Assembly: GCA_016927395.1 (NCBI GenBank)
Contig: JAFGMU010000009.1
Location: 1-49,617, forward strand
Reading direction: 5' to 3'
Length of the DNA: 49,617 nucleotides
From: Alphaproteobacteria bacterium
Lineage (GTDB): Bacteria; Pseudomonadota; Alphaproteobacteria; Rs-D84
Each line of letters opens with the position of its first letter. The stretch's first letter is position 1. This document shows, in pieces, positions 22,934 to 37,493 of this stretch. Under the pieces are notes generated by a model. That model did not search any database. It saw only the letters and a program-made list of their open reading frames with translations, and was not told the DNA's origin. Made by a program: the position numbers and the translations under genes.

Positions 22934-22962
22934 TTGACTTTTTTATCGTTTTGTGATAGTAT
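22934..22962 (+). promoter_or_regulatory. near-consensus sigma-70 promoter with extended -10
   Basis: TTGACT-N17-TAGTAT with TGa immediately upstream of the -10. Confidence 0.55.
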
Positions 22963-22988
22963 TATAAAAGTAAAAGTACAAAATATGC

Positions 22989-23012
22989 CCGCACAATGAT
23001 GCGGTTTTTTTT
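22989..23012 (+). terminator. leader terminator 1
   Basis: CCGCAcaatgaTGCGGtttttttt, about 20-40 nt downstream of the predicted TSS. Confidence 0.5.
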
Positions 23013-23035
23013 ACTTTTTTAATTACACAAGATTT

Positions 23036-23062
23036 AACCCGTAAATTTTTTACGGGTTTTTC
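23036..23062 (+). terminator. leader terminator 2
   Basis: AACCCGTAAAtttTTTACGGGTTtttc, a 10-bp stem 26 nt before the first gene of the particle cluster. Confidence 0.65.
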
Positions 23063-23087
23063 TTTTGCTATAAAAAGGAAATATCAT

Positions 23088-23498
23088 ATGCATTTGACGA
23101 TTATAAAAAATCCAGACGAATCAAAAATAGTCATGTATAAAATTGCAAGATTGGTTTATGCGGAAACTTTTGGTTCATCACTGGCTGCTGTGGAAGCTTT
23201 AACGTCAATGATATCTAACTTATGCATAACTTCAAAAAGAGAACTTTCTGACATAGCCCAAGATAATAATATTTTCGAATCATTAAACAAAAATTCAAAG
23301 CGTAATAAATATCTGTCAATTGATAGTGGAAATCGGAATTTTAAAATGTGCATTCGTGTAGTTCAAAGAATGTTTAATGGAAATTTACCAGATTCTTGTT
23401 TTGGCGCAACAAAATTTCATCATATCGAGGTGTTGCCAGATTGGGCCAGATCACGTGGATATATCGCAGAAATAGACGGTTTATTATTTTACTTATAA
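23088..23498 (+). CDS. cell-wall hydrolase (SleB/CwlJ Hydrolase_2 family), endolysin candidate
   Basis: IARLVYAETFG...ATKFHHIEVLPDWA...IDGLLFY follows the Hydrolase_2 pattern. Confidence 0.65.
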   Translation: MHLTIIKNPDESKIVMYKIARLVYAETFGSSLAAVEALTSMISNLCITSKRELSDIAQDNNIFESLNKNSKRNKYLSIDSGNRNFKMCIRVVQRMFNGNLPDSCFGATKFHHIEVLPDWARSRGYIAEIDGLLFYL

Positions 23499-23518
23499 AT
23501 TTTAAAAAGGGACTTGTT

Positions 23519-23710
23519 ATGGAAAAAATTATAACAGGCGGCTTTATGGCCGGAAAGAGAACGTATATAGTGTCGACCGTCGGAATACTTTCTGCGATCG
23601 GTGCATATTTAGTCGGAGATACCACGATATTTGGTGCTCTGCAAACAATTTTTACATTGGGTGGAATATATTTTCTGCGTAAATCAAATGAAAATAAAAG
23701 GAAAAAATAA
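23519..23710 (+). CDS. holin-like small membrane protein (63 aa, 2 TM, basic tail)
   Basis: MEKIITGGFMAGKRTYIVSTVGILSAIGAYLVGDTTIFGALQTIFTLGGIYFLRKSNENKRKK. Placed directly after the hydrolase. Confidence 0.5.
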   Translation: MEKIITGGFMAGKRTYIVSTVGILSAIGAYLVGDTTIFGALQTIFTLGGIYFLRKSNENKRKK

Positions 23711-24367
23711 ATGAATAAAATTCCAGAAAAATTTCTGAACGAAGACGGAACATTGAACTCTGATGCTTTGGTAAAGTCTTATTCTGAACTTGAAAAAAAA
23801 ATAGGGTCAATGATTTCTGTGCCAGATGAAGATTCAGATCCAGATGTGCGTGAAAAATTTAATCGCGCAATAGGTGTTCCAGATGATGCCAGTCAATATC
23901 CACAAAATGTTTTGTTTGAAGATGAATCGGTTCGTAATAAATTTTATGAAATTGGTTTGACTGCAAAGCAAGTTGAAAAAATTTATGAAATCGCAGATGA
24001 ATTTTTGTCACCAGTGTTATCAGAAGTTTTTAGAACACAATATGAATCAAACGCAATTTCTGATTTGAAAAAGTTTTTTGGTGACGAAGATAAAATGAAA
24101 GATGCAATAAAAGAAATAAATGCATTCGGACAAAAATTTTTACCAGCCGAAGCATTCGAAGCTCTAAGCGCTACACCCCAGGGAATTCAAAGCATTTATA
24201 AGATGATGCAATCAATGGAACCAACTGTTAGAACCGATAATAATGCTGCACAAAATTTTTCAGATTCAGATTTAAGACGAATGATGCGAGATCCAAAATA
24301 CTGGCGCGAACAAGATCCAGAATATGTTCGCAAAATCGAAAGCGGGTTCAAAAAATTATATTCATAG
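23711..24367 (+). CDS. capsid scaffolding/assembly protein candidate
   Basis: N-terminus MNKIPEKFLNEDGTLNSDALVKSYSELEKKIG is typical of podovirus scaffold proteins. Acidic, helical, and sits upstream of the capsid gene. Confidence 0.55.
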   Translation: MNKIPEKFLNEDGTLNSDALVKSYSELEKKIGSMISVPDEDSDPDVREKFNRAIGVPDDASQYPQNVLFEDESVRNKFYEIGLTAKQVEKIYEIADEFLSPVLSEVFRTQYESNAISDLKKFFGDEDKMKDAIKEINAFGQKFLPAEAFEALSATPQGIQSIYKMMQSMEPTVRTDNNAAQNFSDSDLRRMMRDPKYWREQDPEYVRKIESGFKKLYS

Positions 24368-24468
24368 ATTTTTCACTTTCTTCTTTACTAATTTTTTGGT
24401 TTTAGATAAAATAAGTTACAAGAACAAAAAAATTTGTTCTACCGAGAAAACTTAAAAGGAGAGAAAGA

Positions 24469-24762
24469 ATGGCATTTACATTCTTAAAACCAGCCGCAAA
24501 AAAACCAGCTGTAAAAAAACCAGCTGCAAAAAAACCGGTTGCTAAAAAGCCAGCTGCAAAAAAACCAGCTGCCAAAAAAGTAGTTGCTGCAAAACCAGCT
24601 GCTAAAAAAGTAGTTGCTAAAAAGCCAGCTGCAAAAAAACCAGTTGTTAAAAAAGTAGTTGCAAAAAAAGTTGTTGCTAAAAAACCAGTAGCAAAAAAAG
24701 TTGCAATGAAAAAGCCAGCTGTAAAAAAACCAGCTGCTAAAAAGAAAGTTGTAAAAAAATAA
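24469..24762 (+). CDS. histone H1-like Lys/Ala/Pro repeat protein (97 aa)
   Basis: About 17 tandem (P/V)(A/V)(A/V)KK pentapeptides. By my count 37 Lys and no acidic residue. Strong SD aaaaggagag. Confidence 0.75.
   Translation: MAFTFLKPAAKKPAVKKPAAKKPVAKKPAAKKPAAKKVVAAKPAAKKVVAKKPAAKKPVVKKVVAKKVVAKKPVAKKVAMKKPAVKKPAAKKKVVKK
24478..24750 (+). repeat. 15-nt coding tandem repeats (aaaaaaccagctgca-type)
   Basis: Degenerate 15-nt periodicity encoding the AAKKP units. Confidence 0.8.
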
Positions 24763-24763
24763 T

Positions 24764-24791
24764 AAAAGTCCTGCAATTGCGGGACTTTTTA
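24764..24791 (+). terminator. intrinsic terminator after the H1-like gene
   Basis: aaaAGTCCTGCaattGCGGGACTttttt. Confidence 0.8.
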
Positions 24792-24819
24792 TTTCCAGGT
24801 TAAAAGATTACAACAAATT

Positions 24820-24848
24820 AAAACACGCCCACAGGGCGCGTTTTTTTA
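24820..24848 (+). terminator. second intrinsic terminator
   Basis: aaaacaCGCCCacaGGGCGcgttttttt. Confidence 0.7.
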
Positions 24849-25026
24849 TTCGGTTTGATTTAATCTTTTAATTTTGATTCGCGGATAATTCTGGATGTCT
24901 TTGATAGATATTATTTGAACCCGCTTATTTTATTATTTGGCGCGATGATTCGCATAACCAGAAAATAAAATTCCCCTGATGCGCATTTTATGCGTTTTTT
25001 AATTTAAAAAACAAAAGGAAAATTTT

Positions 25027-25854
25027 ATGTCTGTTTCCATAGATCAAGTCTTCGTAAAACAATTCGAAGCTGATGTTCATTTGGCTTATCAGCAAATGGG
25101 CACCAAACTGCGTTCAACTGTTCGCAGCAAATCTGGTATTATCGGCAGTTCTACCACTTTCCAAAAAGTAGGCAAAGGAACAGCTGCAACAAAATCCCGC
25201 CATGGTATCGTGCCGGTTATGAATCTGAATCATGAACCTGTTGAATGTATGTTACAGGATTACTATGCAGGCGACTGGGTAGATAGTATGGATGAATTAA
25301 AAACAAATATTGATGAACGTCGTGTCGTTGCTTCGGCTGGTGCATATGCATTGGGACGCAAAACAGACGAATTGATTATTGATGCTATGAACGCTGCAAA
25401 TGTTGAAGTTGGCGATTACACAACAAATTTGACCAAAGATTTGATTTTATCTGCTGTAGAACAGTTAAATGCAAATGATGTGCCAGATGATGGTCGTAGA
25501 TTCGCAGTAGTTGGTGTTCAGCAATGGAATCAATTATTGTCAATGGATGAATTTGTATCTAGTGAATATGTTGGTGGCGAAACACCATTGGTATCAGGAT
25601 TTGAAACTAAAAAATGGTTGGGATTGGTTTGGGTATTACACAATGCTTTGCCAATAAACGAATCTGGTCGTGATTGTTTTATTTATCACGCAGCCAGCGT
25701 TGGGCACGCATGTGGACAAGAAGTTAAAACGGATATCAGCTGGCATGGTGAACGTGCTGCGCATTTTATATCCAACAGCATGTCCCAAGGCGCCGTTTTA
25801 ATTGATGCAGACGGTATCGTACGTATTAAGTGCGATGAAACTGCTTCTATCTAA
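25027..25854 (+). CDS. major capsid protein, T7 gp10-like
   Basis: VFVKQFEADVHLAYQQMGTKLRSTVRSKSGIIGSSTTFQKVGKGTA parallels T7 gp10 (LFLKVFGGEVLTAFARTSV...VRSISSGKSAQFPVLGRT). Position is scaffold > capsid > tubular proteins. Confidence 0.75.
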   Translation: MSVSIDQVFVKQFEADVHLAYQQMGTKLRSTVRSKSGIIGSSTTFQKVGKGTAATKSRHGIVPVMNLNHEPVECMLQDYYAGDWVDSMDELKTNIDERRVVASAGAYALGRKTDELIIDAMNAANVEVGDYTTNLTKDLILSAVEQLNANDVPDDGRRFAVVGVQQWNQLLSMDEFVSSEYVGGETPLVSGFETKKWLGLVWVLHNALPINESGRDCFIYHAASVGHACGQEVKTDISWHGERAAHFISNSMSQGAVLIDADGIVRIKCDETASI

Positions 25855-26130: not shown

Positions 26131-26167
26131 AAGACCAAGAGATTTTAATCTAGTGGTCTTTTTTTTA
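26131..26167 (+). terminator. terminator after the capsid unit
   Basis: AAGACCA...TGGTCTTtttttt compound hairpin. Confidence 0.7.
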
Positions 26168-26182
26168 ACACAGGATTTACAA

Positions 26183-26701
26183 ATGCTTACAAAAATTGAT
26201 TTGTGTTCTTTTGCACTGTTGAAACTGGGCGAAGAACCAATACAATCCCTGACTGATAATTCTGCTTCTGCTCAATTATCCAGGACACTTTTTGATCCAG
26301 TTGTCGAAACTTTGATTGCTTCGCATCCATGGCGATTCGCACAGAAGAAATTTGAATTAACAAAAACGGCTGATGATGTATTTTTGATACCTTCTGAAGT
26401 TCTGAGAGTTCTGAAATGTCCAGGAGAAGTAATAGGAAATACAATTATTTCTTCCAGTGATGTGATTTCAATTTCAGCAATAGTTCGCACATCAGTTGAA
26501 TATTTCCCAAGTTATTTTGTATCACTGGCCGCAACCAAGCTGGCAATGGAGTTTTGTATCCCATTGTTAGGTGATCAAAATGTTTTCAGAATGCTGGCAG
26601 CATTATACGAATCAGAGTTGCGCGTTGCAAAGTTTATAGACAGCACGATTTCGGTAAATACTGATATCAGAGATTTTTCGCTGGTCAGTGCACGTTTTTA
26701 A
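26183..26701 (+). CDS. tail tubular protein A, T7 gp11-like
   Basis: IDLCSFALLKLGEEPIQSLTDNSASAQLSRTLFD...HPWRFA parallels T7 gp11 (NDILASIGEPPVSTLEGD...A...GWTFN). Confidence 0.65.
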   Translation: MLTKIDLCSFALLKLGEEPIQSLTDNSASAQLSRTLFDPVVETLIASHPWRFAQKKFELTKTADDVFLIPSEVLRVLKCPGEVIGNTIISSSDVISISAIVRTSVEYFPSYFVSLAATKLAMEFCIPLLGDQNVFRMLAALYESELRVAKFIDSTISVNTDIRDFSLVSARF

Positions 26702-26725: not shown

Positions 26726-28438
26726 ATGGGAAACTTTATTTATACTCAAAACTCTTTTGCATCCGGAGAAGTGTCATCGGAATTTTTTGCACGTGAAAAT
26801 CTGAACGGGTTGTCAAAATTAGAAAATATGGATGTTATATCCAGTGGGGCTTTGTCCAGACGACGTGGTTTAATGAATGTATCAGAAACGATTGCTGGGA
26901 CACGATTAATACCTTTCTCTGTTAACGAAGATGAAAATTATATACTGGCATTGACTGATGGTCATATAAACGTTTTTTATAACGGATCAAAAATCCAAGA
27001 TATTATTTCACCATGGAACGAATCTAGTTTGGAAAAATTGCAGTATGCACAAAGATTTGGAACAATGATATTTGTTCATCCCGATTATCAACCCCATGTT
27101 CTGAAAAAAGGAATAATAAATTTTGAATTATCAGTTTTTAGTTTTTCATCAAATGATGATATGACTGTAAATATACCTTTTATGAAATTTGATGACGCCA
27201 GTGGAATAAAAATAACAGTAACAACAAGCGCGTACGGTAATAGTTATGCAACATTTACCACAAATAAAAATTTCTGGAACAGCACCAATGTTGGTGGTCG
27301 ATTATATTTGTTGGGAAAACAATGGATAGTTTATGAATATGTCAGCCCCACAGTTATAATAGCAAATCTTAATGGAAGTTATGTACTTCCGGGATCTGCT
27401 GTATCAGACTGGTCCGAGGCAGCATTTGGTACACGTCGTGGCTGGCCATGCAGTATTTCTTTTCATCAAGACAGATTGGTTTTTGGGGGTTCACGTGAAT
27501 GGCCCAGCGGTGTATGGATGTCCAAAGTCGGAAATCATAACAATTTTGATGCAGGCACAGGATTAGATGACGAAGCAATATTTATAACACTGTTGTCAGA
27601 ACAGCGTCAACAAATTTGCACAGTTGTCAGCAGTGATAATTTACAAATTCTGACATCAACAGGTGAATGGGCAATATCAAATAAACCATTAATACCATCA
27701 TCGGTTGATATAAAACAGCACACATCGGTTGGCAGTTTTTCTGAAAGATACTTGCCACCACAGAAAATAGAAGGCAGTACGGTTTTTATATCAAACAGTA
27801 AAAAAGATATTCGCGAATTGTCTTTGGACGAACTGAGTGAAAACTATAACGCGACTGATTTGTGTTCTTTGTCAAAGCACCTTATGGATAATCCAATAGA
27901 TTTGGCATACAACGATCAAACCGGTCAATTGTTTATAGTTATGCAAAATGGAGATATGGCTGTTTTAAATAAAAATTCAAATCTGGGTGTTTCTGCGTGG
28001 GGAATTTATAAAACCCAGGGAAATTTCGAATCTGTTGCAGTTATGGATGGTGAAACATATGTTTCTGTTAAACGTAATGATAAGACTTTTATAGAAAAGT
28101 TTTCAGATTTGGCCTTAATCGATAATGGAATTTATGGATTTTCATATGCAGCGTATGGGTTGCCTTTATTAAGTGCAAAAAATTCACCGACAAAAATCAG
28201 AATACGAAAAATCAGCGCGCGTGTTCTGAATACAAAATCATTGTTTATAAATGGGTTTCGCGCACCATTGCCCAATGAAGCATATTCAGATGATTCGCCA
28301 GGATATTCAGGCGATGTGTCTATAAATTTGTTGGGGTCATCAACAGACATAATCCAACCAGTGTGGAAAATAGAAAGCAGTGAACAACTGCCAACAACGG
28401 TTCTGTCACTAAGCGTTAATGGTTGGTACATGGTTTAA
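26726..28438 (+). CDS. tail tubular protein B, T7 gp12-like (short, 570 aa)
   Basis: N-terminus NSFASGEVSSEF...NMDVISSGALSRRRGL...ENYILALTDGHINVF parallels gp12 (KGGISQQP...GLQKRPP...YYAVFTNGDIRVF). Position is after gp11-like. Confidence 0.6.
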   Translation: MGNFIYTQNSFASGEVSSEFFARENLNGLSKLENMDVISSGALSRRRGLMNVSETIAGTRLIPFSVNEDENYILALTDGHINVFYNGSKIQDIISPWNESSLEKLQYAQRFGTMIFVHPDYQPHVLKKGIINFELSVFSFSSNDDMTVNIPFMKFDDASGIKITVTTSAYGNSYATFTTNKNFWNSTNVGGRLYLLGKQWIVYEYVSPTVIIANLNGSYVLPGSAVSDWSEAAFGTRRGWPCSISFHQDRLVFGGSREWPSGVWMSKVGNHNNFDAGTGLDDEAIFITLLSEQRQQICTVVSSDNLQILTSTGEWAISNKPLIPSSVDIKQHTSVGSFSERYLPPQKIEGSTVFISNSKKDIRELSLDELSENYNATDLCSLSKHLMDNPIDLAYNDQTGQLFIVMQNGDMAVLNKNSNLGVSAWGIYKTQGNFESVAVMDGETYVSVKRNDKTFIEKFSDLALIDNGIYGFSYAAYGLPLLSAKNSPTKIRIRKISARVLNTKSLFINGFRAPLPNEAYSDDSPGYSGDVSINLLGSSTDIIQPVWKIESSEQLPTTVLSLSVNGWYMV

Positions 28439-28459: not shown

Positions 28460-28807
28460 ATGTCACAAATAGTATCTGATGTAACAGATGTTTTGAATAA
28501 TAAAAAATCAGAAAAAGAAGCAGATAATTCAAGAAAAAAAATATTGGCACAAATTGCGGCCGATGAAAAAGCAAAAACAAATTTGGTAAAAAAAACGCTA
28601 GCAACCCAACGTGCTAAATACGGTGCTGCTGGGATGTCCAGCAGTGGAATGACCGAAGAAGCCGTTTTGAAAAGGCTGCGTGAAGAAACCGAAGAACCAT
28701 ATAACGAAAAGAAAAGAACAAATTTGGAAAAGTTAAAGAATGTAAAAGCAAAAAAGACAAATCTTTTGGGTTCATTGGTTTCAAATTTAGACAATCTGTT
28801 CAAATAA
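28460..28807 (+). CDS. Lys-rich coiled-coil protein, the only ORF in the slot where T7 has internal virion proteins
   Basis: 115 aa with strong SD (aaaggagaaaataATG). No motif. Confidence 0.5.
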   Translation: MSQIVSDVTDVLNNKKSEKEADNSRKKILAQIAADEKAKTNLVKKTLATQRAKYGAAGMSSSGMTEEAVLKRLREETEEPYNEKKRTNLEKLKNVKAKKTNLLGSLVSNLDNLFK

Positions 28808-28832: not shown

Positions 28833-29381
28833 ATGTATAAAGTTTCATACTTTGGTGATGGTCAGACTTTGGAATTTATTTTTGTATTTCCTTTCTTTCA
28901 AGAATCAGATATTCGTGTTGCACTGAACGAAGAGGTTTTAGATTTTTCGCAGTATAGCGTTAAAATTAATCCAGAATTTGATGGTGGTACAGTAATGTTT
29001 GCTGTGCCCCCAATCGAAGGTACAAAAATAGACATATTCAGACAAATAAGTCTAGAAAGAACAATTGATTACCAGCCGACTGTAAAAATAGATCCAGAAA
29101 ATCTTAATACTGATTTTAATTTTATATTGGAAGCATTTAAAGATTTTAAATCAATAGATGTTGATTTTGCAGAATGGAAAAATATTCACGATAATGTAGT
29201 GTCCAGTATTGAATACACAATCAGTCTAATAGAAGATAAACTTTCCGGCGGCGGTGTTTTAGGTTTGTATAACAATTTATTATCAGTACTTGCCAGTGCT
29301 GTGCCGAATTTAATAAATGATTATGGTTCAATAGCTGAAATTGCAAATAATGAAAACGCAGACGATTACGGAATATTATAA
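28833..29381 (+). CDS. tail fibre N-terminal (particle-attachment) domain only, T7 gp17-like
   Basis: VSYFGDGQTLEFIFVFPFFQESDIRVALNEEVL..YSV...GTKIDIFRQISLERTIDYQ...ENLNTDFNF follows the Phage_T7_tail pattern (YQLDGSNRDFNIPFEYLARKFVVVTL...IELRRVTS..RLVDF..ILRAYDLN). It stops at 182 aa vs 553 aa in T7. Confidence 0.65.
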   Translation: MYKVSYFGDGQTLEFIFVFPFFQESDIRVALNEEVLDFSQYSVKINPEFDGGTVMFAVPPIEGTKIDIFRQISLERTIDYQPTVKIDPENLNTDFNFILEAFKDFKSIDVDFAEWKNIHDNVVSSIEYTISLIEDKLSGGGVLGLYNNLLSVLASAVPNLINDYGSIAEIANNENADDYGIL

Positions 29382-29960: not shown

Positions 29961-29986
29961 AAAAGCATCTAAATTTAGATGCTTTT
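29961..29986. terminator. perfectly palindromic bidirectional terminator at the left edge of the inserted block
   Basis: AAAAGCATCTAAATTTAGATGCTTTT. Confidence 0.8.
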
Positions 29987-30627: not shown

Positions 30628-30646
30628 CACTCTCTCCGTGAACTTT

Positions 30647-31654
30647 TTATTCCATGACGATCATAACAACTTTGTGCATAGTTTTATAAGTTATCTTTTC
30701 GTCAGGGGATAAAACTTGTCCGTAAACGTTCCCTTTGGAATCTTCGCGAACGATTGCAATTTGTGCATTAGCAGAACTGTCAAATCCCAGTTTTTCAAAA
30801 TCAGCATCAACAAAAACCGCCATATCACCAACAACAGGTTTCTTTTCAGAATCTGCAAAAATATAAGATTTTTCAGGAATTGTGCTGCCTAAACGTTTTG
30901 TATTTGGAATTACAGCATAGATTCCTTTGCGACCTTCCAAGCTGATTGGAGAAACAATCATTGTTTTATCAGATTTTTTGAAAGATATATTTTTTCCGTT
31001 TGGTGTTCCAAAAACAGGGGCCAGTTTTTTACGAGCGCTGTCATATAATTTTGCACCGTACAAACTTCCTGGTAAATCAATTCCAGACAAAGGACTGCCT
31101 GGTATTAATACAGATTTTACACGTTCTTTGACCTTGTTTATTTGTTTGTTCAAATCACCGGATTTATATAATTTTGCAACTTCGTCAAACATTGTTGCAA
31201 CAGAGTGTTTGAATGATTTGGCCAAAGGTTCGATTTCTTTTTCATAAACTTCGCGTTGTCCAACTTCGATTTTATGATAAACAGACAATGTCATACCTGC
31301 ATCTTTGGCGGCCTGGGCGATTGTTTTTCCAGCCTTTTGACGAATTTTGCGCAAGCCACTACCGAATATTTTCAGTCCGCTGCCTTCGTTGTCTGTCAGT
31401 CTGCGTTTGATTTCATTTTGCCAAACATCTGCGACTTCATCGGATTCACGAATAAATATATCGGAAAGTTTGCATCCCAAGATATTGCAAATATTCAACA
31501 ATTGTTTTTGATTCAGACGACGTACGCCTTTTTCAATTTTTGAAACAGCAGATAAAGAAAGTTTTGCACGTCTGGATAATTCGGTCATTTTCATACCATT
31601 TGCCAAACGAATATTTCTGATGTTATTTGGGAATATAATTTCTTCCTGAGCCAT
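30647..31654 (-). CDS. XRE-family regulator with two HTH domains and a C-terminal beta-rich (S24-like?) domain
   Basis: IRNIRLANGMKMTELSRRAKLSLSAVSKIEKG and LRKIRQKAGKTIAQAAKDAGMTLSVYHKIEVG are two HTH_3 units. The C-terminus has ...VVGDMAVFV... without a clear Ser/Lys dyad. Start set at MAQEE (SD aaggggg). Confidence 0.7.
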   Translation of the reverse strand: MAQEEIIFPNNIRNIRLANGMKMTELSRRAKLSLSAVSKIEKGVRRLNQKQLLNICNILGCKLSDIFIRESDEVADVWQNEIKRRLTDNEGSGLKIFGSGLRKIRQKAGKTIAQAAKDAGMTLSVYHKIEVGQREVYEKEIEPLAKSFKHSVATMFDEVAKLYKSGDLNKQINKVKERVKSVLIPGSPLSGIDLPGSLYGAKLYDSARKKLAPVFGTPNGKNISFKKSDKTMIVSPISLEGRKGIYAVIPNTKRLGSTIPEKSYIFADSEKKPVVGDMAVFVDADFEKLGFDSSANAQIAIVREDSKGNVYGQVLSPDEKITYKTMHKVVMIVME

Positions 31655-31730
31655 GACAAACCCCCTTGTTGACAAAAATGTTAGTCAATTTTTTATAAGT
31701 TCGCAAGAGAAATAATTTAGGAAAGTATTT

Positions 31731-33299
31731 TTAGTATTGAATATTGTCTGAAATATTATTCAAATCTGGTTCATTATTATCTTTCTTTGAACCAAAAGAG
31801 TTTGTTTTTGGTTCCGCAAAAGAATTGTACCCACTGTTACCATGGTCAAATTCATCCAAATCTTCGAATAAACTGTATTCACCTTTGAATGCCAGGCGCA
31901 TAGTTTCTGGTTTTCCGTGACGGTTTTTGCCGACTATGATTTCGGCTTTGCCGCGGGCATCGTTCAAACGTTTTGCCCATTCTTCATGTTCTTTTTGCAA
32001 GAACTGGTCACTGCGGCCGGAAATTTTATACATCGGGTCACGACCGTCCAGATAATATTCTTCGCGGTATGTAAACATTACAATGTCAGCGTCTTGTTCA
32101 ATTGATCCTGATTCACGCAAATCTGACAACTGTGGTCGTTTATCTGTTCTGTCTTTGGATTCGACATTACGTGATAACTGGGACAGGGCGATAACTGGGA
32201 CATCCAATTCCTTGGCCAGCATTTTTAAACCACGAGTTATTTCAGAAATTTCGTTAACACGATTGTCGCTGCGTCTTCCACCAGGGGATGTCATCAACTG
32301 TAAATAGTCAATTACAATCAATGCAATTCCGCCGTGTTTACGTGCAATTCTGCGTGCGCGTGTACGCATCATTGGAACGGACATTCCAGGTGTGTCGTCA
32401 AAATACAACGGTACCTTGGACAGTGCATCTGAATATTGTGACATTTTCAGGAAATCTTCGTCTGTTAATGATCCGTTGCGCATAGAGCTGCTGGAAATTT
32501 TTGTCTGCGAAGACAGAACACGTGATGCTAACTGCGAAGCAGACATTTCAAGACTGAAAAATACAACTGCGCCTTTGTATTTTTTGTTTGCTCGTTCTGA
32601 TAAAATAGCACTGGCCGCATTAAATGCAATATTCATTGCAAATGTGGTTTTACCCATCGCAGGACGTCCAGCAATTATAATCAGGTCAGAATGATGAAGA
32701 CCACTGATAGATTTATCCAGTTCACGAAATCCAGTTGTCAGACCAGAAAGTTTACCATCGGCCTTGTATGCGATTTCGGCTTCTTCCAGTGCTTCGCGTA
32801 ACGCGCTGGAAATAGGCATTGCGCCTTTTTCAGTAGAGCCCGCAACAGATAAATCAAAAAGTCTTTTTTCTGCAGATTCAATTTGTGTAGAAACAGGATT
32901 TTCCAAATCTTCTATGAATGCAGAATCGGTTATGTCTTGGCCCAGGTTTATTAATTCACGACGAAGTGCGTTTTCATAAACAATACGTCCATATTGTTCA
33001 GCGTTAACAACTGTTGTTCCTGCACCTGACAATTGTGTCAGATAATCAATTCCGCCAACGGATTCCAAGACACCCTGTTGTTCCAGATAATTTTTTGCTG
33101 TGATAATATCAAATGGAATTCCAGCTGCGAATTGTTTTTCAGCTAGTTTATAAATTTCCTTATGGGCAGGATGTGTAAAGTGATCAGGTCTTAGAAATTC
33201 AGACATGCGTTCCAAGGCGCGGTTATTCACCAGTACCGCTGCCAAGACTGCTTGTTCTGCTTCCAAGTTTGTCGGTAAAGTTTTCGGAGTAAAATCCAT
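31731..33299 (-). CDS. dnaB: replicative DNA helicase DnaB (522 aa, with a low-complexity C-terminal tail)
   Basis: LPTNLEAEQAVLAAVL N-terminus, GRPAMGKTTFAMNIA Walker A, IVIDYLQLM, ALSQLSR, ESGSIEQDAD. Confidence 0.95.
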   Translation of the reverse strand: MDFTPKTLPTNLEAEQAVLAAVLVNNRALERMSEFLRPDHFTHPAHKEIYKLAEKQFAAGIPFDIITAKNYLEQQGVLESVGGIDYLTQLSGAGTTVVNAEQYGRIVYENALRRELINLGQDITDSAFIEDLENPVSTQIESAEKRLFDLSVAGSTEKGAMPISSALREALEEAEIAYKADGKLSGLTTGFRELDKSISGLHHSDLIIIAGRPAMGKTTFAMNIAFNAASAILSERANKKYKGAVVFFSLEMSASQLASRVLSSQTKISSSSMRNGSLTDEDFLKMSQYSDALSKVPLYFDDTPGMSVPMMRTRARRIARKHGGIALIVIDYLQLMTSPGGRRSDNRVNEISEITRGLKMLAKELDVPVIALSQLSRNVESKDRTDKRPQLSDLRESGSIEQDADIVMFTYREEYYLDGRDPMYKISGRSDQFLQKEHEEWAKRLNDARGKAEIIVGKNRHGKPETMRLAFKGEYSLFEDLDEFDHGNSGYNSFAEPKTNSFGSKKDNNEPDLNNISDNIQY

Positions 33300-34146
33300 G
33301 GCAGATATAGTATATCAAAATTTTCAATTTTCAACGCCTTTTTTAAGAGGGTATAAAGAGCTTAGAATTCCGGTACTGAATTCCCACGGAATATCAGCAT
33401 GGCCAGAGCTTTTTCCGTTGGAAAAAATAGAAGAAATGCGCGATATTGTCGGCCCCAGACATTTTTCTTCGCAGATGATGTTGGAATATGTTAACGAAGA
33501 TAAAGCCAGATTAGATCCCGGTGCACTACATTTTTACGATTATAATTTTGATTCAAATAATGCAAAGTTGGGGGATAATTTGATAACAGGTGCTGCGATG
33601 TATTGGGATCCAAGTGGTGGTATGGCAAAATCAGACAACAGCGTTTGTGTTTTGATTTATAGAGATGATAGAAACCGTCGTATATTTATCCAAGATGTAA
33701 AATATTTAACCGTAGATGATAATGATTTTCACCCTTTGGCGACCCAATGTGAATCAATTTTGAATTTTATGCAGGTTCATAACCAAAAAAAAATCGCAAT
33801 TGAAGTAAATGGAATGGGAAATGCTTTGCCAGAAATATTACGCGAAGCTGCTATGAAACGTGGGCAATCAGTTCTGGTTCAAAAAATAGTCAGCAATCTG
33901 AATAAAGAAAAAAGAATACTGAATGCAATAGAGCCATTGTTAACAACGGGTCGGTTATATGCGCATGAAAAAATAAAATCTACTCCGCTATTATCTGAAA
34001 TGCTGGGGTGGTCACCATTGATGTCAAACAACAAAGACGATGGCTTGGACGCTTTGGCTGGGGCTATGCAATTACAACCTACGATAATCAGGACGTTGTC
34101 CAGTAAATTACGACCGTTAAAAGCAAAAATCGATTTTAAAGTTTGA
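33298..34146 (+). CDS. large terminase, C-terminal nuclease fragment
   Basis: WPELFPLEKIEEMRDIVGPRHFSSQMMLE, YWDPSGGMAKSDNSVCVL, IAIEVNGMG and KDDGLDALAGAM are RNase-H-like terminase nuclease motifs. The ATG interlocks with the dnaB ATG (CATG at 33297-33300). Confidence 0.75.
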   Translation: MADIVYQNFQFSTPFLRGYKELRIPVLNSHGISAWPELFPLEKIEEMRDIVGPRHFSSQMMLEYVNEDKARLDPGALHFYDYNFDSNNAKLGDNLITGAAMYWDPSGGMAKSDNSVCVLIYRDDRNRRIFIQDVKYLTVDDNDFHPLATQCESILNFMQVHNQKKIAIEVNGMGNALPEILREAAMKRGQSVLVQKIVSNLNKEKRILNAIEPLLTTGRLYAHEKIKSTPLLSEMLGWSPLMSNNKDDGLDALAGAMQLQPTIIRTLSSKLRPLKAKIDFKV

Positions 34147-34149: not shown

Positions 34150-34743
34150 TTATTGTGCGTAATTGCACGTACCAGTGTCGATTATATAACTGCCCTTGGT
34201 ATTACTTCCAGTTTTTCCAGCCGAAAGATAACAACCAGTTATTGATGTGCTGCCTGAACTTGATGTGGCATTTGAATTTCCGGTTGCTAATACACAACTT
34301 ACACAATTGGAACCGTTGTAATAATAACCTGCGTTGCAAACAACACTTCCGGTTGTACACGTTGCATTTGATGGACATGGACTGCATGTCGTACTTGAAC
34401 TTAGATAATAACCGGAATTACAAACAATTGTACCAGTTGTACAAGTTGCATTTGATGGACATGGACTGCATGCTGTACTGGAACTTTTATAATATCCGGA
34501 ATTACATGTGAATGTTGATGGATTTATAGCTTCTCCAGAACATGTTGCATTTGCAGGGCATGCGACGCAGCCTGTATAACTGCTGGTTGCTGTTCCATAA
34601 TATCCAAATGCACAGAAATAAATAATTGGACAACTTAAACAACTTGAGCCAGATGGAGTACAAATAGGATATAAGGCAGAAAAAGCACCAGTCACTGAAA
34701 CAGCATAAATAAATAAAGAAAAAATATAAGTTTTAATTTTCAT
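34150..34743 (-). CDS. secreted cysteine-rich repeat protein (197 aa, ~20 Cys)
   Basis: Signal peptide MKIKTYIFSLFIYAVSVTGAFS. Repeated C-N-S-G-Y-Y-x5-C-S-P-C-P-S-N-A-T-C-T-T-G units (CxxC spacing). Confidence 0.75.
   Translation of the reverse strand: MKIKTYIFSLFIYAVSVTGAFSALYPICTPSGSSCLSCPIIYFCAFGYYGTATSSYTGCVACPANATCSGEAINPSTFTCNSGYYKSSSTACSPCPSNATCTTGTIVCNSGYYLSSSTTCSPCPSNATCTTGSVVCNAGYYYNGSNCVSCVLATGNSNATSSSGSTSITGCYLSAGKTGSNTKGSYIIDTGTCNYAQ
34339..34506 (-). repeat. two near-identical 84-nt (28-codon) tandem repeats inside the Cys-rich gene
   Basis: CNSGYYKSSSTACSPCPSNATCTTGTIV / CNSGYYLSSSTTCSPCPSNATCTTGSVV. Confidence 0.85.
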
Positions 34744-34745
34744 TT

Positions 34746-35009
34746 TTATATTTGTGGATCCAATGGATCAAGTATACCATCATCGCAAGTACAAGAAATT
34801 TCATCAAAAAACATTGGTGGACAATCTGGTTCGCAAGTACAAGTTGGAGAAGAATATTCGTATGTTAATTTGCATACGTTATTTATGCAATTTGTTTGTC
34901 CTATGCATAATGCGGTTCTTTCAAAGCAATCATATATAATTCCAGAAGGTGGGGCAAAAGCCTGTGATGCAAAAAATAAAACAAATAAAAAAGATAATAT
35001 TTTTTTCAT
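34746..35009 (-). CDS. small secreted cysteine-rich protein (87 aa)
   Basis: MKKILSFLFVLFFASQAFA signal. The mature part has 9 Cys (…CTCEPDCPP…CTCDDG). Its stop lies 2 nt before the start of the next Cys-rich gene. Confidence 0.65.
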   Translation of the reverse strand: MKKILSFLFVLFFASQAFAPPSGIIYDCFERTALCIGQTNCINNVCKLTYEYSSPTCTCEPDCPPMFFDEISCTCDDGILDPLDPQI

Positions 35010-35131
35010 GATGTTCACTGTTATGTACATTGGCATTATAGAAAGAAAATACATATTCTGTAAAGATTATTTTTATTCTTGGATTTATATAATTTATATT
35101 ATAAAATTGTTTGGTAGTTCAAGGATAAAAT

Positions 35132-35410
35132 ATGAAAAATAAATCGATAGTTTTATTGGCTTTGATTGTTTGCGCATGCAGCAATGTATCCAGTATAAAA
35201 TATGAAAATGATGGTGATGGTTGCACATACACTGAAACATATCGCCCCAGAAAGGTTTTTCCATTTGATTGGTTTGGAATAAATGACAAAGATGTAAAAA
35301 TACACTATGCAGGTACAACTTGTGAAAAAATGGTGGATAAAAATATAAAGAGCAGTATGTATGTTCCAGATACCGGAAAATCCGAAAAAGCAGATAATAA
35401 AAATAAATAA
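35132..35410 (+). CDS. lipoprotein (92 aa)
   Basis: MKNKSIVLLALIVCACSN lipobox, followed by the terminator at 35427-35454. Confidence 0.6.
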   Translation: MKNKSIVLLALIVCACSNVSSIKYENDGDGCTYTETYRPRKVFPFDWFGINDKDVKIHYAGTTCEKMVDKNIKSSMYVPDTGKSEKADNKNK

Positions 35411-35426
35411 TAAAACAAAAAATTAT

Positions 35427-35454
35427 AAAATCCCGCATTTTGCGGGATTTTTTA
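35427..35454 (+). terminator. intrinsic terminator
   Basis: aaAATCCCGCAttttGCGGGATTtttt. Confidence 0.8.
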
Positions 35455-35473
35455 TTTAACATAAGGAAAAAAA

Positions 35474-36694
35474 ATGAATAAAAATCTTTTACAACTTTAT
35501 AAAAAGGCATTAGATATGCGTGATCCGTGGTTGAATCGTTGGGATTCTGCACGACGTTATACCATGCCGACAACGGACGATGAAATTGCAACACTTTACG
35601 ATGCAACAGCGTCCGATGCAGTCGATAATTTGGCCGCCAGTATGTACACTTTATTAACACCACCCGAATCTGGTTGGTTAAATTTGGTTCGCGAAAGTGA
35701 TTTGTCACCAGATGCAGAAATCGCAACTAAAACATTACGTGCGCATTTAAACGATTCAAATTTTTATACAACAATTCATCAATGTTATTTGGATTTAGTT
35801 ATTTTTGGAACAGCTTGTTTATTTATGTCTGAAAATCCAATTGGTGCTGACAGTGCGTTTTCTTTCACAGCTATTCCTGTATCGGACATTGCAATATTGG
35901 GTGGTGCGATATTTCATACCACGTCAATGACCGCAGCCGAAGTAATGGAAAAATATCCAACATGGACACCACCTGCAAATTTACGTAGCTCTATTAAAAC
36001 TAATCCGCAAATACAATTAAAATTGGTGCAAAGCCTGGTTGGAAAAGAATTTACAGCTTGGTTAGATGTTGGTGGTGATATTGAAAATAATATAGTATCC
36101 CATGGTGTTTTTGAAACAAATCCATATATTATTTTCCGCTGGTCATTGGCCAGTGGTGAATTGTATGGTCGCAGTCCTGTGTTACGTGCTTTGCCCGATA
36201 TTAAAACTGCAAACAAAGTCGTAGAACTGGTTTTAAAAAATGCAACTATCGCAGTCAGTGGAATTTGGCAGGCTGATGACGACGGTGTTATAAATTTGTC
36301 GAATATTAACCTGACGCCGGGTGCAATAATTCCAAAAGCTGTTGGATCATCGGGATTAACACCATTGTCATCAGGTGCCGATTTTGATGTTTCACAGATA
36401 GTTTTGGGCGATTTACGCGACAGAATCAGACATACATTGCTGGCAGACAGATTGGGGTTTTTGTCTGAAAAAGAAATGACAGCAACAGAAATACTGGCAC
36501 GCAATGCAGATATGATGCGTGTTCTGGGCGCAACATATGGTCGTTTGTTGAATGAATTTATTAAACCAATGTGTGAACGTGGTTTGCAAATATTATCGCG
36601 TCGCGGATTGATTGAAAAAATATCTTTGCATTCGGACGCAGAATTAAAATACATGGCACCAATTGCACAAATGACTGGAAATACAATTTTGTAA
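35474..36694 (+). CDS. portal (head-tail connector), T7 gp8-like (short, 406 aa)
   Basis: GELYGRSPVLRALPDIKTANKVVELVLKN parallels T7 DGESYGRSYIEEYLGDLRSLENLQEAIVK. MTATEILARNADMMRVLGATYGRLLNEFIKPM parallels VTAEEIRYVASELEDTLGGVYSILSQELQLPL. Confidence 0.8.
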   Translation: MNKNLLQLYKKALDMRDPWLNRWDSARRYTMPTTDDEIATLYDATASDAVDNLAASMYTLLTPPESGWLNLVRESDLSPDAEIATKTLRAHLNDSNFYTTIHQCYLDLVIFGTACLFMSENPIGADSAFSFTAIPVSDIAILGGAIFHTTSMTAAEVMEKYPTWTPPANLRSSIKTNPQIQLKLVQSLVGKEFTAWLDVGGDIENNIVSHGVFETNPYIIFRWSLASGELYGRSPVLRALPDIKTANKVVELVLKNATIAVSGIWQADDDGVINLSNINLTPGAIIPKAVGSSGLTPLSSGADFDVSQIVLGDLRDRIRHTLLADRLGFLSEKEMTATEILARNADMMRVLGATYGRLLNEFIKPMCERGLQILSRRGLIEKISLHSDAELKYMAPIAQMTGNTIL

Positions 36695-36709
36695 CCAAGG
36701 AATATTTTT

Positions 36710-36904
36710 ATGAAAGCCGAAATAGAAAAAAATTATTTACGTTGTTTCAGTACACCGTCTGGTGCTGTTGTTTTGCAACATTTACGAGAAATTACAATTG
36801 AAAGATTTCTGGGACCAAATGCAACAGAATCAGAACTTAGAAGTCTGGAATCCCAACGTTCGCTTGTTCATCAGATTGAAAATTTAATTGAAAGGGGTAA
36901 ATAG
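36710..36904 (+). CDS. small phage protein (64 aa), Bbp19-like by recollection
   Basis: FSTPSGAVVLQHLREITIERFLGPNATESELRSLESQRSLVHQIENLI. Portal-adjacent position with a good SD. Confidence 0.45.
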   Translation: MKAEIEKNYLRCFSTPSGAVVLQHLREITIERFLGPNATESELRSLESQRSLVHQIENLIERGK

Positions 36905-36907
36905 AAT

Positions 36908-37165
36908 ATGTCAGAAAAACACGATGTTATTGGTGTATTGGAATTTTTACGCAGCAGTTGGTTTTTAATAGTTTTTATTGGTGGATTGATATACTGGGCT
37001 GCTAAACAAGACAGTTCATTATCAAATATAGAAAAAAGCGAAAACAGAATAACTGCATTAGAAAATAGAACAAGTTTATTGGAATCGGGTATAGGTCAAT
37101 TACAATTGAAAATAGACGGAATAAAAGAAGATTTAAACCTGATAAAAAGCGCAGTTATAAAATAA
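36908..37165 (+). CDS. i-spanin-like protein (N-terminal TM + coiled coil, 85 aa)
   Basis: WFLIVFIGGLIYWAA TM segment followed by heptad-rich ...ITALENRTSLLESGIGQLQLKIDGIKEDLNLIK. Confidence 0.4.
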   Translation: MSEKHDVIGVLEFLRSSWFLIVFIGGLIYWAAKQDSSLSNIEKSENRITALENRTSLLESGIGQLQLKIDGIKEDLNLIKSAVIK

Positions 37166-37286
37166 ACGCATATGAAATTAGTGCTTTTTAAGGACATATT
37201 GTTTGACTTAATATTGGGTTAACTATATAATAAAATTAGTTGTCCAAAAAGGATACATAAAACAATATTTAAAATAAGGAAAAAAA

Positions 37287-37493
37287 ATGAAAAAAATAAT
37301 TTTGTTAACTGCTTTAACAGTATCTTTGACAGGTTGTTACGTTTATAAAACTGAACATATTATGAAACCAGCGGGTAAAGAATGTTCTTATAATGTAAGT
37401 AAAATTGGTAATTCTATTGTTGGCTATTCAGAAAGTTCAAATTCTAATGAATTTCGTGCTGAAAAAGATTGTAAAGAATGGTTAAGAAAATAA
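37287..37493 (+). CDS. small lipoprotein (68 aa), o-spanin-like
   Basis: MKKIILLTALTVSLTGC lipobox. Short mature part with 2 further Cys. Confidence 0.45.
   Translation: MKKIILLTALTVSLTGCYVYKTEHIMKPAGKECSYNVSKIGNSIVGYSESSNSNEFRAEKDCKEWLRK

Follow-up and report, generated by a model that had tools for sequence, protein, structure and literature searches.

We identified, in a 49,617-nt stretch of DNA (the window) from the lineage Rs-D84/Candidatus Enterousia, gut Alphaproteobacteria with genomes smaller than 1 Mb, a domesticated T7-type (podovirus-like) and putatively particle-forming element that is inherited vertically throughout this lineage and is most likely a gene transfer agent, a reading to which we assign a probability of roughly 55%. 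Its domestication is well supported. The cluster probably represents a new kind of gene-transfer particle, and we infer particle formation, packaging of host DNA, transfer and a regulatory coupling to the host.

Gene content and borders of the cluster

The region from 22.9 to 37.5 kb of the window carries T7-type head, tail, packaging and lysis genes without replication genes (Table 1). The family calls come from Pfam and PHROG scans and PDB sequence searches, which show that the T7-type cluster described here in an earlier note is real. The flanks are housekeeping DNA, with parC, gap, miaA, priA, lpxI and birA to the left and yraN, bamA, rseP, uppS and frr to the right. The proposed fixed place between birA and yraN holds for birA, syntenic in 44/44 loci, and not for yraN, which is the neighbour in only 17/44. 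The left border, formerly put at 22934, moves to orf80 (21439), which is homologous to the N-domain of the S24 (LexA/CI-like) repressor flanking clusters of the Acetobacteraceae (hhalign 99.7%, E 1.5e-26). It is the remnant of the element's repressor and is present in 43 of the 44 full loci (median identity 79%, dN/dS 0.013-0.022). Membership of the adjacent orf140, without a Pfam or PHROG match, is uncertain.

Table 1. Features of the element and of its surroundings in the window.
Feature	Position	Strand	Description
Unlinked tail protein, 160 aa	10915-11397	-	Mtd_N domain PF18454 at 3.3e-16; phrog_9648 'tail protein' at 4.5e-15
orf80	21439-21681	+	HTH only; upstream of birA
orf140	21800-22222	+	conserved syntenic gene, 44/44 loci at 50% identity
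birA	22226-22888	+	housekeeping; TIGR00121, 147 bits (cutoff 83); between repressor remnant and lysis genes
Lysis/scaffold leader	22934-23066	+	promoter-like TTGACT-17-TAGTAT with TG, then two terminator-like hairpins (22989-23004, 23036-23058) before RBS
Endolysin (cell-wall hydrolase)	23088-23498	+	phrog_938 at 1.7e-7; dN/dS 0.12
Holin-like protein, 64 aa	23516-23710	+	by inspection only: two hydrophobic/transmembrane segments, basic tail
Scaffold, T7-type	23711-24367	+	PF05396 at 3e-10; dN/dS 0.054
Lys/Ala/Pro-repeat protein, histone H1/HC2-like	24469-24762	+	PF07382 at 1.9e-14; inside head module
Capsid leader	24952-25005	+	conserved motif GCATAACC, then terminator-like hairpin (24981-24995, followed by T-run) directly before RBS
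Major capsid protein	25027-25854	+	PF19821 at 3.3e-70; PDB 9eg4 at 9e-25
p76, conserved, 76 aa	25881-26111	+	phrog_18004; directly after capsid gene
Adaptor, gp11-type (tubular protein A)	26183-26701	+	phrog_394 at 2.4e-29; connector of PDB 8ck1
Nozzle, gp12-type (tubular protein B)	26726-28438	+	phrog_376 at 7.7e-84; tail nozzle 8ck1_A at 5.7e-42
Charged 115-aa protein	28460-28807	+	internal-protein slot after nozzle; dN/dS 0.044
Tail-fibre N-terminal (tail-attachment) domain only	28833-29381	+	phrog_1640 and phrog_2710, residues 4-100
TerN, N-terminal terminase piece	29350-29958	+	Walker A, Walker B, motif III; dN/dS 0.031
Bidirectional hairpin terminator	29961-29986		between terN and convergent u212
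u212	29992-30630	-	all-helical, lineage-specific; last gene of operon; dN/dS 0.074
Regulator	30647-31675	-	two XRE-type HTH domains (PF01381 twice) and C-terminal domain
dnaB, cellular-type replicative helicase	31731-33299	-	NF006606, 609 bits (cutoff 540)
TerC, C-terminal terminase piece	33298-34146	+	PF22530 (T7 RNaseH-like nuclease), PF17289; dN/dS 0.044
dnaB promoter	33307-33334	-	TTGAAA-16-TACTAT in terC codons 4-13; ends 7 nt before dnaB ATG
Variable insert	34150-35410		two Cys-rich secreted ORFs (-), small ORF with signal-like N-terminus (+)
Portal, gp8 type, 406 aa	35474-36694	+	PF12236 at 3.3e-80; dN/dS 0.038
Bbp19-like small protein	36710-36904	+	PF25181 at 2e-9; dN/dS 0.24
p85	36908-37165	+	N-terminal membrane anchor, coiled coil; i-spanin-like or holin-like by inspection

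Both leaders carry conserved sequences, with CTTGACTTT being conserved in 40/60 loci upstream of the lysis and scaffold genes and TGCATAACC being present in 43/76 loci upstream of the capsid gene. An equivalent of the histone-H1-like ORF (N-terminus MAFTFLKPAAKK) lies between scaffold and capsid in 60/63 loci. The capsid protein (median identity 82%, dN/dS 0.026) is encoded by the gene with the lowest synonymous entropy among six genes profiled, which is what high expression predicts and may be read as a hint of expression. Its length of 275 aa is below that of the T7 protein, as had been noted before, but a short capsid is typical of the phage group: the capsid gene of the lytic phage Hodr has about 275 codons (L081, 2893-3717) and its product aligns end to end with the window capsid. 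p76 occupies the same post-capsid position in phage Hodr, MT838907 and AMB-1, and the Bbp19-like gene follows the portal gene in Hodr and MT838907 too. The portal matches T7 gp8 portal structures in the PDB sequence search and covers positions 2-439 of the 489 of the PF12236 model, the C-terminal ~50 missing.

Among the tail genes, the nozzle has more than 1,000 homologues, the best 120 listed being 539-575 aa and nearly all 570-575 aa long. For the adaptor, a stop codon precedes the ATG in five loci, which rules out the GTG at 26153 as the start. After the nozzle there is only the 115-aa ORF, conserved in 79 loci and weakly related to the post-nozzle 146-aa gene of the Acetobacteraceae (hhalign 75%), and the window contains none of the large core proteins. 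ORF scans likewise detected no integrase, polymerase, primase or small terminase inside the cluster among ORFs of at least about 60 aa, nor outside it, within the window, among ORFs of at least 110 aa, in agreement with the absences listed earlier. One tail gene of the system lies outside 22934-37493, at 10915-11397, which amends the earlier note. Its product, conserved over the N-terminal ~55 aa with a variable C-terminus, is a candidate for the distal fibre or receptor-binding protein of the same system, and homologues are encoded 22-880 nt downstream of p85 in 16/59 species loci.

For the endolysin, hhalign gives 98.9% with its homologue in the Acetobacteraceae clusters, a Hydrolase_2 gene. 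The holin-like protein, found in 62 loci at 68% identity (dN/dS 0.13), has no family match in the Pfam and PHROG scans. Only half of a suggested spanin-like pair persists: p85 is conserved in about 60 loci, but a lipoprotein ORF follows p85 in only 2/60 loci, and the 68-aa ORF gave no tblastn match in any of 80 loci. Outside the conserved core, the variable insert occurs in at most 5/80 loci and evolves fast (pN/pS 0.38-0.54 even against a 97.5%-identical relative).

Conservation, selection and co-divergence with the host

The locus is lineage-wide and not strain-specific, with about 490 matches in species-representative genomes and with homologues of portal and nozzle on chromosomal contigs, some as long as 848 kb. 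Gene order from orf80 through the portal is identical in 44/44 full-length loci, each from a different species, bbp19 and p85 are found in 43 of these 44, and the same order recurs in 59 IMG/VR fragments. About 97-100% of loci have intact reading frames, and among some 1,400 gene copies only four contain a real internal stop. Across the dozens of species compared, where synonymous sites are saturated, the main genes for structure, terminase and lysis have a dN/dS of 0.03-0.13 (dnaB 0.016, birA 0.06), which is far below 1 both between species and, with the same pattern, at the 2.5% divergence of the 97.5%-identical relative. Distances of the phage genes correlate with those of dnaB or birA (Mantel r 0.59-0.75, p = 0.001) as strongly as birA and dnaB correlate with each other. 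Lineage-wide order, intact frames, low dN/dS and co-divergence with the host thus bear out the earlier proposal of a domesticated element kept by the host, as opposed to a decaying prophage.

A helicase operon within the split terminase gene

The large terminase is encoded in two pieces, as the earlier note had it. TerN aligns to residues 21-211 of T7 gp19 (8dgc, 4bij) and to residues 4-202 of an unsplit relative, whose residues 198-464 align to TerC, comprising the remaining ATPase part and the RNaseH-like nuclease with its acidic motifs WDPS, EVNG and DDGLDA being readable. The unsplit terminase aligns colinearly to TerN and then TerC, both halves being complete and the junction being without loss. 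The fission is ancient and conserved. The cut falls inside the ATPase domain, which counts against a working gene transfer agent, and we know of no active two-piece terminase of such kind.

Between the two pieces sits a minus-strand operon of dnaB, the two-HTH regulator (median identity 78%, dN/dS 0.028) and u212, with dnaB being found there in every locus. The phage_DnaB model scores dnaB at 401 bits, under its cutoff of 499. The ATGs of terC and dnaB overlap (CATG), an overlap that is conserved, and no promoter was identified for terC. The dnaB promoter sequence stands in the same register in 36/69 loci, and synonymous entropy over the first ~20 terC codons is 0.30 compared to a gene mean of 0.77. 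u212 has about 1,000 homologues, none of them named, and a search of PDB and BFVD with its AF2 model (pLDDT 83) gave no match by fold.

Proposed working, alternatives and related systems

In our model, host RNA polymerase would transcribe the plus-strand units in a subset of cells, each unit opening with a leader carrying terminator-like hairpins, which makes control of read-through probable. Scaffold, capsid and portal would build the procapsid, and the two-polypeptide terminase would package DNA, TerN contributing the ATPase core and TerC the ATPase remainder and the nuclease; the lack of a recognisable small terminase suggests packaging with little sequence specificity. The basic, histone-H1-like protein may compact the DNA or travel with it. 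A short tail would be completed by adaptor, nozzle, fibre N-domain and the separate Mtd_N-type fibre tip, and holin-like protein, endolysin and p85 would lyse the producer cell. Because large ejection proteins of the gp15/16 type are absent, DNA would probably be delivered only into the periplasm of the recipient, whose cellular machinery would then take it up. All particle genes of the cluster lie on the plus strand, and the operon of dnaB, XRE regulator and u212, nested in the terminase gene, has the opposite orientation. A transcript that continues into terC and portal would then be antisense to this operon and to the dnaB promoter, making particle production and replication antagonistic, a coupling that we infer from the gene layout alone.

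A T7-type particle without ejection proteins or small terminase, and without a detectable fibre N-domain in 9/44 full loci, may not deliver DNA. Particles or assemblies kept for another use are possible, though distinctly less probable than a gene transfer agent. They could serve to kill or lyse competitors, to set free DNA or cell contents through programmed lysis, or as a decoy that captures DNA or components from T7-like phages infecting the cell. The evidence for domestication is identical for such a use, the missing ejection proteins and the loss of the fibre N-domain fit it, the variable C-terminus of the fibre tip is expected for targeting other cells, and related gut phages exist (MT838907 capsid at 62% identity). 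However, purifying selection acts on both terminase pieces and on the portal with the same strength as on the capsid, which argues that DNA packaging itself is selected, and we know of no killing particle described on a T7-type head and tail.

A satellite-like or defective prophage, dependent on a helper phage or an unlinked replication module and packaging specific DNA (its own or the helper's), is unlikely. The Acetobacteraceae clusters, with their genus-dependent flanks and own S24 repressor, are compatible with past mobility, but in Rs-D84 the position is fixed, the essential host genes birA and dnaB are interleaved, neither integrase nor repeats bound the element, divergence follows the host and no TerS or pac-type recognition module was found in the window. 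That the cluster is a functionless, decaying remnant kept only through the embedded essential dnaB and birA might be suggested by the interrupted terminase gene and several missing T7 modules; it is highly improbable, as genes are kept neither in open frame nor at a dN/dS of 0.03-0.13 by their linkage to essential neighbours, and nothing was lost at the terminase junction.

The gene transfer agent that we favour resembles the RcGTA-type agents of Alphaproteobacteria, such as that of Rhodobacter capsulatus, in being a ~15-kb phage-derived head, tail, packaging and lysis cluster that is chromosomally fixed, vertically inherited and under purifying selection, without replication and integration genes and with at least one extra structural gene elsewhere. 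RcGTA consists of a long-tailed, siphovirus-like module of HK97 type, whereas the window cluster is T7-type (PF12236, PF05396, PF22530, phrog_394/376), with a short tail predicted from its genes, a split terminase and no small terminase found. BaGTA of Bartonella adjoins a phage-derived run-off replication origin, and rearranged genomic surroundings uncoupled phage replication from particle gene expression. It shares with the window cluster domestication, co-divergence with the host and a link to replication functions but differs in phage ancestry, and in the window cluster a cellular helicase gene itself lies inside the terminase gene. Dd1 of Desulfovibrio desulfuricans, from an unrelated phylum, is a GTA-like particle, reportedly short-tailed, whose genes have, to our knowledge, never been identified, so that sequences cannot be compared.

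The closest cultured relative is the 34-kb Pelagibacter phage EXVC031P Hodr (OQ414635), which has homologous portal (32%), capsid (45%), Bbp19-like, scaffold, p76, adaptor and nozzle genes in the matching local order portal, bbp19, scaffold, capsid, p76, adaptor, nozzle. Hodr has a much longer portal (~527 codons) and nozzle (~918 codons), three ORFs of ~159, 783 and 1,247 codons after the nozzle, i.e. in the T7 core-protein slot, and many further unannotated genes; no match to TerN or TerC was found for its terminase. Compared to Hodr, the window cluster has a permuted order and a reduced gene set, is interrupted by host genes and is immobile. Compact T7-like clusters, undescribed as far as we know, occur in Acetobacteraceae (Neoroseomonas, Belnapia, Rhodovarius) and in Paramagnetospirillum magneticum AMB-1 (amb4267 region), with capsids of the same family (50-58%), portal, scaffold, adaptor, nozzle, fibre N-domain, terminase and endolysin. 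In Acetobacteraceae the repressor is also of the orf80 family, large core proteins are missing, and neither the clusters nor the DNA next to them contain integrase or replication genes. Unlike the window cluster, the Acetobacteraceae and AMB-1 clusters have an unsplit terminase (about 480 aa), a full-length fibre (about 770 aa), a 90-100-aa ORF before terL as a small-terminase candidate and a repressor retaining its S24 domain, in a different gene order and with different flanks.

A domesticated T7-type particle gene set

We show that the gene cluster at about 22.9-37.5 kb of the window is a domesticated T7-type particle gene set. Gene identities were assigned by combining the ORF listing with Pfam and PHROG scans and searches of solved structures (see table), which together bear out the series of particle genes that an earlier note had read from the sequence; the profile searches it had proposed found T7-type families, and all matches are T7-type (PF12236, PF05396, PF22530, phrog_394/376 and the T7 gp19 and gp8 structures). 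In the structure searches, the portal retrieved T7 gp8, the nozzle and adaptor retrieved podovirus tail structures and the capsid a phage capsid of 289 aa. The cluster does not differ in GC content from its flanks, which carry ordinary housekeeping genes. Within the 49.6-kb window, the scans found neither an integrase, a polymerase or a primase nor a small terminase or a large core protein, confirming the absences noted earlier, and no replication, integration or excision module either; the nozzle gene is followed by a 115-aa ORF only, and no ORF lies between the genes for the fibre N-domain and TerN, the first of the two pieces of the large terminase. Between scaffold and capsid, 60 of 63 loci have a histone-H1-like repeat ORF; the open frame antisense to it most likely arises as a side effect of the repeat and is not a gene. 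One element of the earlier gene list is not supported, the o-spanin of the proposed spanin-like pair, since a lipoprotein ORF follows p85 in only 2 of 60 loci.

Features of the cluster and of the neighbouring DNA, with dN/dS where computed
Feature	Position	Strand	Match	dN/dS
Low-GC island (24-33%): Stealth-family protein, two glycosyltransferases, methyltransferase-like protein	6467-10889			
160-aa ORF with Mtd_N domain	10915-11397	-	PF18454, 3e-16; PHROG tail family	
VirB11-like ATPase	15375-16334	-	TIGR02788, 1.5e-43, below cutoff	
birA (host)				0.061
Leader of endolysin gene with CTTGACTTT	22934-23066			
Endolysin	23088-23498	+	phrog_938	0.12
Holin-like, 64 aa, two membrane segments	23516-23710	+		0.13
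T7-type scaffold	23711-24367	+	PF05396	0.054
124-aa antisense open frame, rich in Phe, Ala, Thr, Gly	24402-24776	-		
Lys/Ala/Pro-repeat protein resembling histone H1/HC2	24469-24762	+	PF07382	
Leader of capsid gene with TGCATAACC	24766-25005			
Capsid	25027-25854	+	PF19821, 3e-70	0.026
p76, 76-aa protein	after capsid	+	phrog_18004	
Adaptor	26183-26701	+	phrog_394	0.10
Nozzle	26726-28438	+	phrog_376, 8e-84	0.083
p115, 115-aa charged protein	after nozzle	+		
Fibre N-domain	28833-29381	+		0.087
TerN	29350-29958	+	T7 gp19 residues 21-211 (solved structures)	0.031
dnaB (host)		-		0.016
TerC	33298-34146	+	PF22530 and PF17289	0.044
First ~20 codons of terC	33298-33360	+		
Sigma-70-like promoter	33334-33307	-		
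Two Cys-rich secreted ORFs (-; 197, 102 aa) and 92-aa ORF with signal-like N-terminus	34150-35410			
Portal	35474-36694	+	PF12236, 3e-80	0.038
Bbp19-like protein (bbp19)	after portal	+	PF25181	0.24
p85, 85-aa membrane-anchored coiled-coil protein	after Bbp19-like gene	+		
Former o-spanin candidate	37287-37493			
ORFs near VirB8-domain gene	38083-39514		no family matches	
VirB8-domain protein	39514-40206	-	PF04335	

Portal homologues number more than 4,500, the best 120 being all 82-89% identical and many of these lying on chromosomal contigs (up to 848 kb) of MAGs with an Alphaproteobacteria or Rickettsiales label; the best 120 of more than 1,000 nozzle homologues are 539-575 aa long, nearly all of them 570-575 aa. 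Scanning a single genome for each species yielded about 490 loci, the best 80 of which are gut MAGs of the GTDB order Rs-D84, including many Candidatus Enterousia and one closed chromosome of 958,618 bp. Nearly all members of Rs-D84 have genomes below 1 Mb with about 850 genes, as described in a paper whose text contains none of the words phage, capsid and gene transfer (PMC12306168). All 44 loci with full flanks, which come from different species, share one gene order: orf80, orf140, birA, endolysin, holin, scaffold, capsid, p76, adaptor, nozzle, p115, (fibre-N) and terN, followed by u212, xre342 and dnaB on the other strand and then by terC, portal, bbp19 and p85. The same order is found in 59 IMG/VR fragments of the lineage. 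bbp19 and p85 occur in 43 of these 44 loci and the fibre N-domain is absent from nine; the Cys-rich ORFs between terC and portal and a 68-aa lipoprotein ORF vary, as does the right flank, with yraN in 17/44 loci, so that of the fixed position between birA and yraN claimed earlier only the birA side was confirmed. In MAG RGIG4147 (JAFTTY01), the cluster is present on two different contigs, which could be due to two strains binned together or to a real duplication.

Nearly all gene copies are full-length and uninterrupted, with only four real internal stops, the other apparent stops lying upstream of the true adaptor and terN starts or being the natural capsid stop. Synonymous sites are saturated in most species pairs (pS about 0.72-0.75; pN 0.09-0.27), and dN/dS was computed from pairs with dS below 0.5, resulting in overall values of 0.03-0.13 for the structural, terminase and lysis genes, with bbp19 outside this range; comparison with a 97.5%-identical relative gives the same picture of selection. 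In non-synonymous distance, the phage genes follow dnaB and birA (Mantel r between the matrices 0.59-0.75, p = 0.001) as closely as birA follows dnaB. Intact frames, low dN/dS and this correlation with host genes show that the locus is vertically inherited and under selection. The open frames and dN/dS below 1 expected in relatives by the earlier note were thus both found, and its trivial alternative, a decaying prophage, is contradicted by the frames, the dN/dS values and the co-divergence with host genes.

Relatives and classification of the cluster

Among cultured phages, Pelagibacter phage Hodr comes closest (capsid 45%, portal 32%), and a human-gut scaffold, MT838907, has a capsid of 62% identity. 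Both carry the order portal, bbp19, scaffold, capsid, p76, adaptor, nozzle, and Hodr has ORFs of about 159, 783 and 1,247 codons behind the nozzle gene; the cluster of the window is thus a permuted and reduced version of this module. Compact relatives of about 13 kb are found in cultured Acetobacteraceae (Neoroseomonas, Belnapia, Rhodovarius and others), in which a divergent S24 repressor and three small genes precede portal, scaffold, capsid, adaptor and nozzle, followed by a 146-aa gene, a fibre of ~770 aa, an ORF of ~100 aa, an unsplit terminase, a small membrane protein and the endolysin. These clusters have neither integrase nor replication genes, and their flanks differ between genera. 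The product of orf80 corresponds to the HTH domain of this repressor family without the S24 domain (hhalign 99.7%), and this kinship places the start of the element upstream of birA, which is interleaved with it as dnaB is. A related version is also present in Paramagnetospirillum magneticum AMB-1 (AP007255, 4666301-4687119), a model magnetotactic strain providing a laboratory handle on this cluster family. The AMB-1 cluster starts with the capsid gene, directly adjoining aroA, cmk and rpsA, and before its terminase lie three ORFs with a fibre N-domain, one with a SPRY domain (PF00622) and one with a weak Phage_T7_tail match.

Compared with known systems, the cluster shares with gene transfer agents (GTAs) in the general sense that it is a phage-derived structural cluster, chromosomally fixed and vertically inherited (44/44 loci; Mantel r 0.59-0.75), with intact frames under purifying selection. 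In contrast to the HK97/siphovirus-like RcGTA type, its portal, capsid, terminase and tail genes match T7-type families instead of the RcGTA head-tail cluster, it has no long-tail module, and tape-measure or tail-tube genes are absent from the cluster. It has the structural module of a T7-like (Autographiviridae-type) phage, i.e. portal, scaffold, capsid, tubular proteins A and B, fibre and large terminase, whereas single-subunit RNA polymerase, DNA polymerase and primase-helicase are absent from cluster and window, and core or ejection proteins of the gp14-16 type and a small terminase are lacking. Unlike an integrated functional prophage or PICI-type satellite, for which integrase, attachment repeats and variable presence and position are expected, it has no integrase in the window and a fixed position with birA and dnaB interleaved.

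The divided terminase, the dnaB promoter and the leaders

The large terminase is in two pieces, as read earlier: TerN and TerC match successive stretches of a single terminase profile (phrog_38, positions 271-458 and 466-702) and of an unsplit relative of 481 aa (residues 4-202 and 198-464). Nothing is missing at the junction, where about five residues are present at both ends (TerN ...DTIYR; TerC M-x-DIVY[KQ]); we take the cut to lie a few residues past motif III, inside the ATPase domain. Directly behind terN lies a bidirectional hairpin terminator, and the insert is a 3.3-kb minus-strand operon of three genes, dnaB, xre342, encoding a regulator with two XRE-type HTH domains, and u212, whose product has no Pfam or PHROG match and, as an AF2 model (pLDDT 83), no fold match in PDB or BFVD. 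A phage origin of the helicase was rejected, since dnaB passed the cellular replicative-helicase models and failed the phage_DnaB cutoff. An intein or intron would have to account for colinearity of TerN and TerC over the unsplit relative with only ~5 residues duplicated, and for an insert of three ordinary genes on the opposite strand, and was likewise rejected. Excision rejoining terN and terC, as in the skin or nifD elements, would call for junction repeats and a recombinase; the longest shared word at the junctions averages 6.5 nt, compared with 7.4 nt in random controls, and the three inserted genes have no recombinase family matches. With programmed excision rejected, we conclude that the terminase is made as two polypeptides. 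The distant lineage L142 (GC 51%, capsid 77%, portal 58%) also has terN, inverted dnaB and terC, showing that the fission is old. The nearest terminase relatives elsewhere are mostly unsplit proteins of 450-510 aa, a few short ones being indistinguishable from fragments.

In most species the terC ATG overlaps the dnaB ATG (CATG), and the Shine-Dalgarno sequence of terC, GGAG or GGGG, lies inside dnaB codons 3-5. Five loci (L002, L003, L030, L024 and L049) have terC and dnaB 32-1,607 nt apart without overlap, and in L002 and L003 the G-rich stretch in dnaB codons 3-5 is also degraded. On the minus strand, a sigma-70-like promoter (TTGAAA-16-TACTAT) spans terC codons 4-13, its end being 7 nt away from the dnaB ATG that follows; 36/69 loci have it in the same register. 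Normalised synonymous entropy in the first ~20 terC codons drops to 0.30, compared with a gene mean of 0.77 and 0.56-0.85 in all other windows of the six genes tested. Promoter and suppressed synonymous variation together show that the beginning of terC also serves as promoter of dnaB, implying a leaderless or near-leaderless dnaB mRNA starting inside terC. For a conserved terC promoter within dnaB, no marked dip in dnaB synonymous variation was found.

With 28 terminator-like hairpins, compared with 12.2 +/- 3.6 in shuffles, the region is enriched in such structures, and the leaders in which they sit are those of the portal and of the lysis/scaffold and capsid units. The endolysin and capsid genes are preceded by the conserved leader motifs CTTGACTTT and TGCATAACC, respectively; behind each motif, one to three of these hairpins come immediately before the ribosome-binding site, a layout typical of regulated read-through, which the leader hairpins suggest here. 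Rfam returned no family at gathering score anywhere in the cluster, leaders included.

Candidate function and neighbouring genes

In 16 of 59 other species, a homologue of the Mtd_N ORF is located behind p85, at a distance of 22-880 nt; conservation covers the N-terminal ~55 residues, whereas the C-terminus is variable. We read it as a putative distal fibre or receptor-binding protein, relocated in the window to a place beside the low-GC glycosyltransferase island. The island directly adjoins this gene and may link surface polysaccharide to the receptor-binding protein of the particle.

In our view the cluster most likely functions as a gene transfer agent, with a probability of roughly 0.55, judging from gene content and conservation. 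Strong selection on both terminase pieces (the ATPase core, and the rest of the ATPase with the nuclease), on the portal, on the full set of short-tail genes, on a variable receptor-binding protein and on the lysis genes favours this function, as does the absence of self-propagation functions from the 49.6-kb window. RcGTA delivers into the periplasm and packages non-specifically, and a particle without ejection proteins and small terminase would fit such delivery and packaging. The same two absences equally leave room for a particle gene set kept for a role other than transfer, which we regard as somewhat unlikely. The gene layout suggests that, with all particle genes pointing one way, the dnaB operon inverted within them and the dnaB promoter in terC, transcription of terC and portal would interfere with dnaB. 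A wider model, tentative and on balance improbable in its full form, is that of an order-wide GTA of independent T7-like ancestry, with a terminase working as two polypeptides and packaging genes head-to-head with the essential dnaB through overlapping start codons, a dnaB promoter within terC and a dnaB operon antisense to the particle genes, so that the cell would either replicate or make particles.

To our knowledge, GTAs with identified genes all derive from long-tailed phage modules and none is T7-derived; we also know of no naturally split large terminase and of no report of such clusters in Enterousia, Acetobacteraceae or Magnetospirillum. A T7-derived GTA would have arisen independently and would deliver by quite different machinery, showing that domestication into transfer particles is not tied to one phage architecture. 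Keeping ~14 kb in genomes below 1 Mb implies a strong benefit, e.g. recombination in a lineage whose genomes are reduced; with its conserved fission, the terminase would be a packaging motor naturally made of two pieces, and from the nested position of dnaB follows a concrete hypothesis on the commitment of producer cells. The host is uncultured; experiments are feasible in relatives that are in culture (Neoroseomonas, Belnapia and Magnetospirillum AMB-1), the unsplit versions in Acetobacteraceae and M. magneticum AMB-1 rendering the family testable in the laboratory if the model is true.

Type IV secretion-like genes, for a VirB11-like ATPase and a VirB8-domain protein, lie on both sides of the cluster. 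The ORFs in the gap between terC and portal are present in at most 5 of 80 species loci and evolve fast, as seen even in the comparison with the 97.5%-identical relative (pS 0.18-0.34, pN/pS 0.38-0.54); at the equivalent place, L142 encodes an 834-aa Cys-rich secreted protein.
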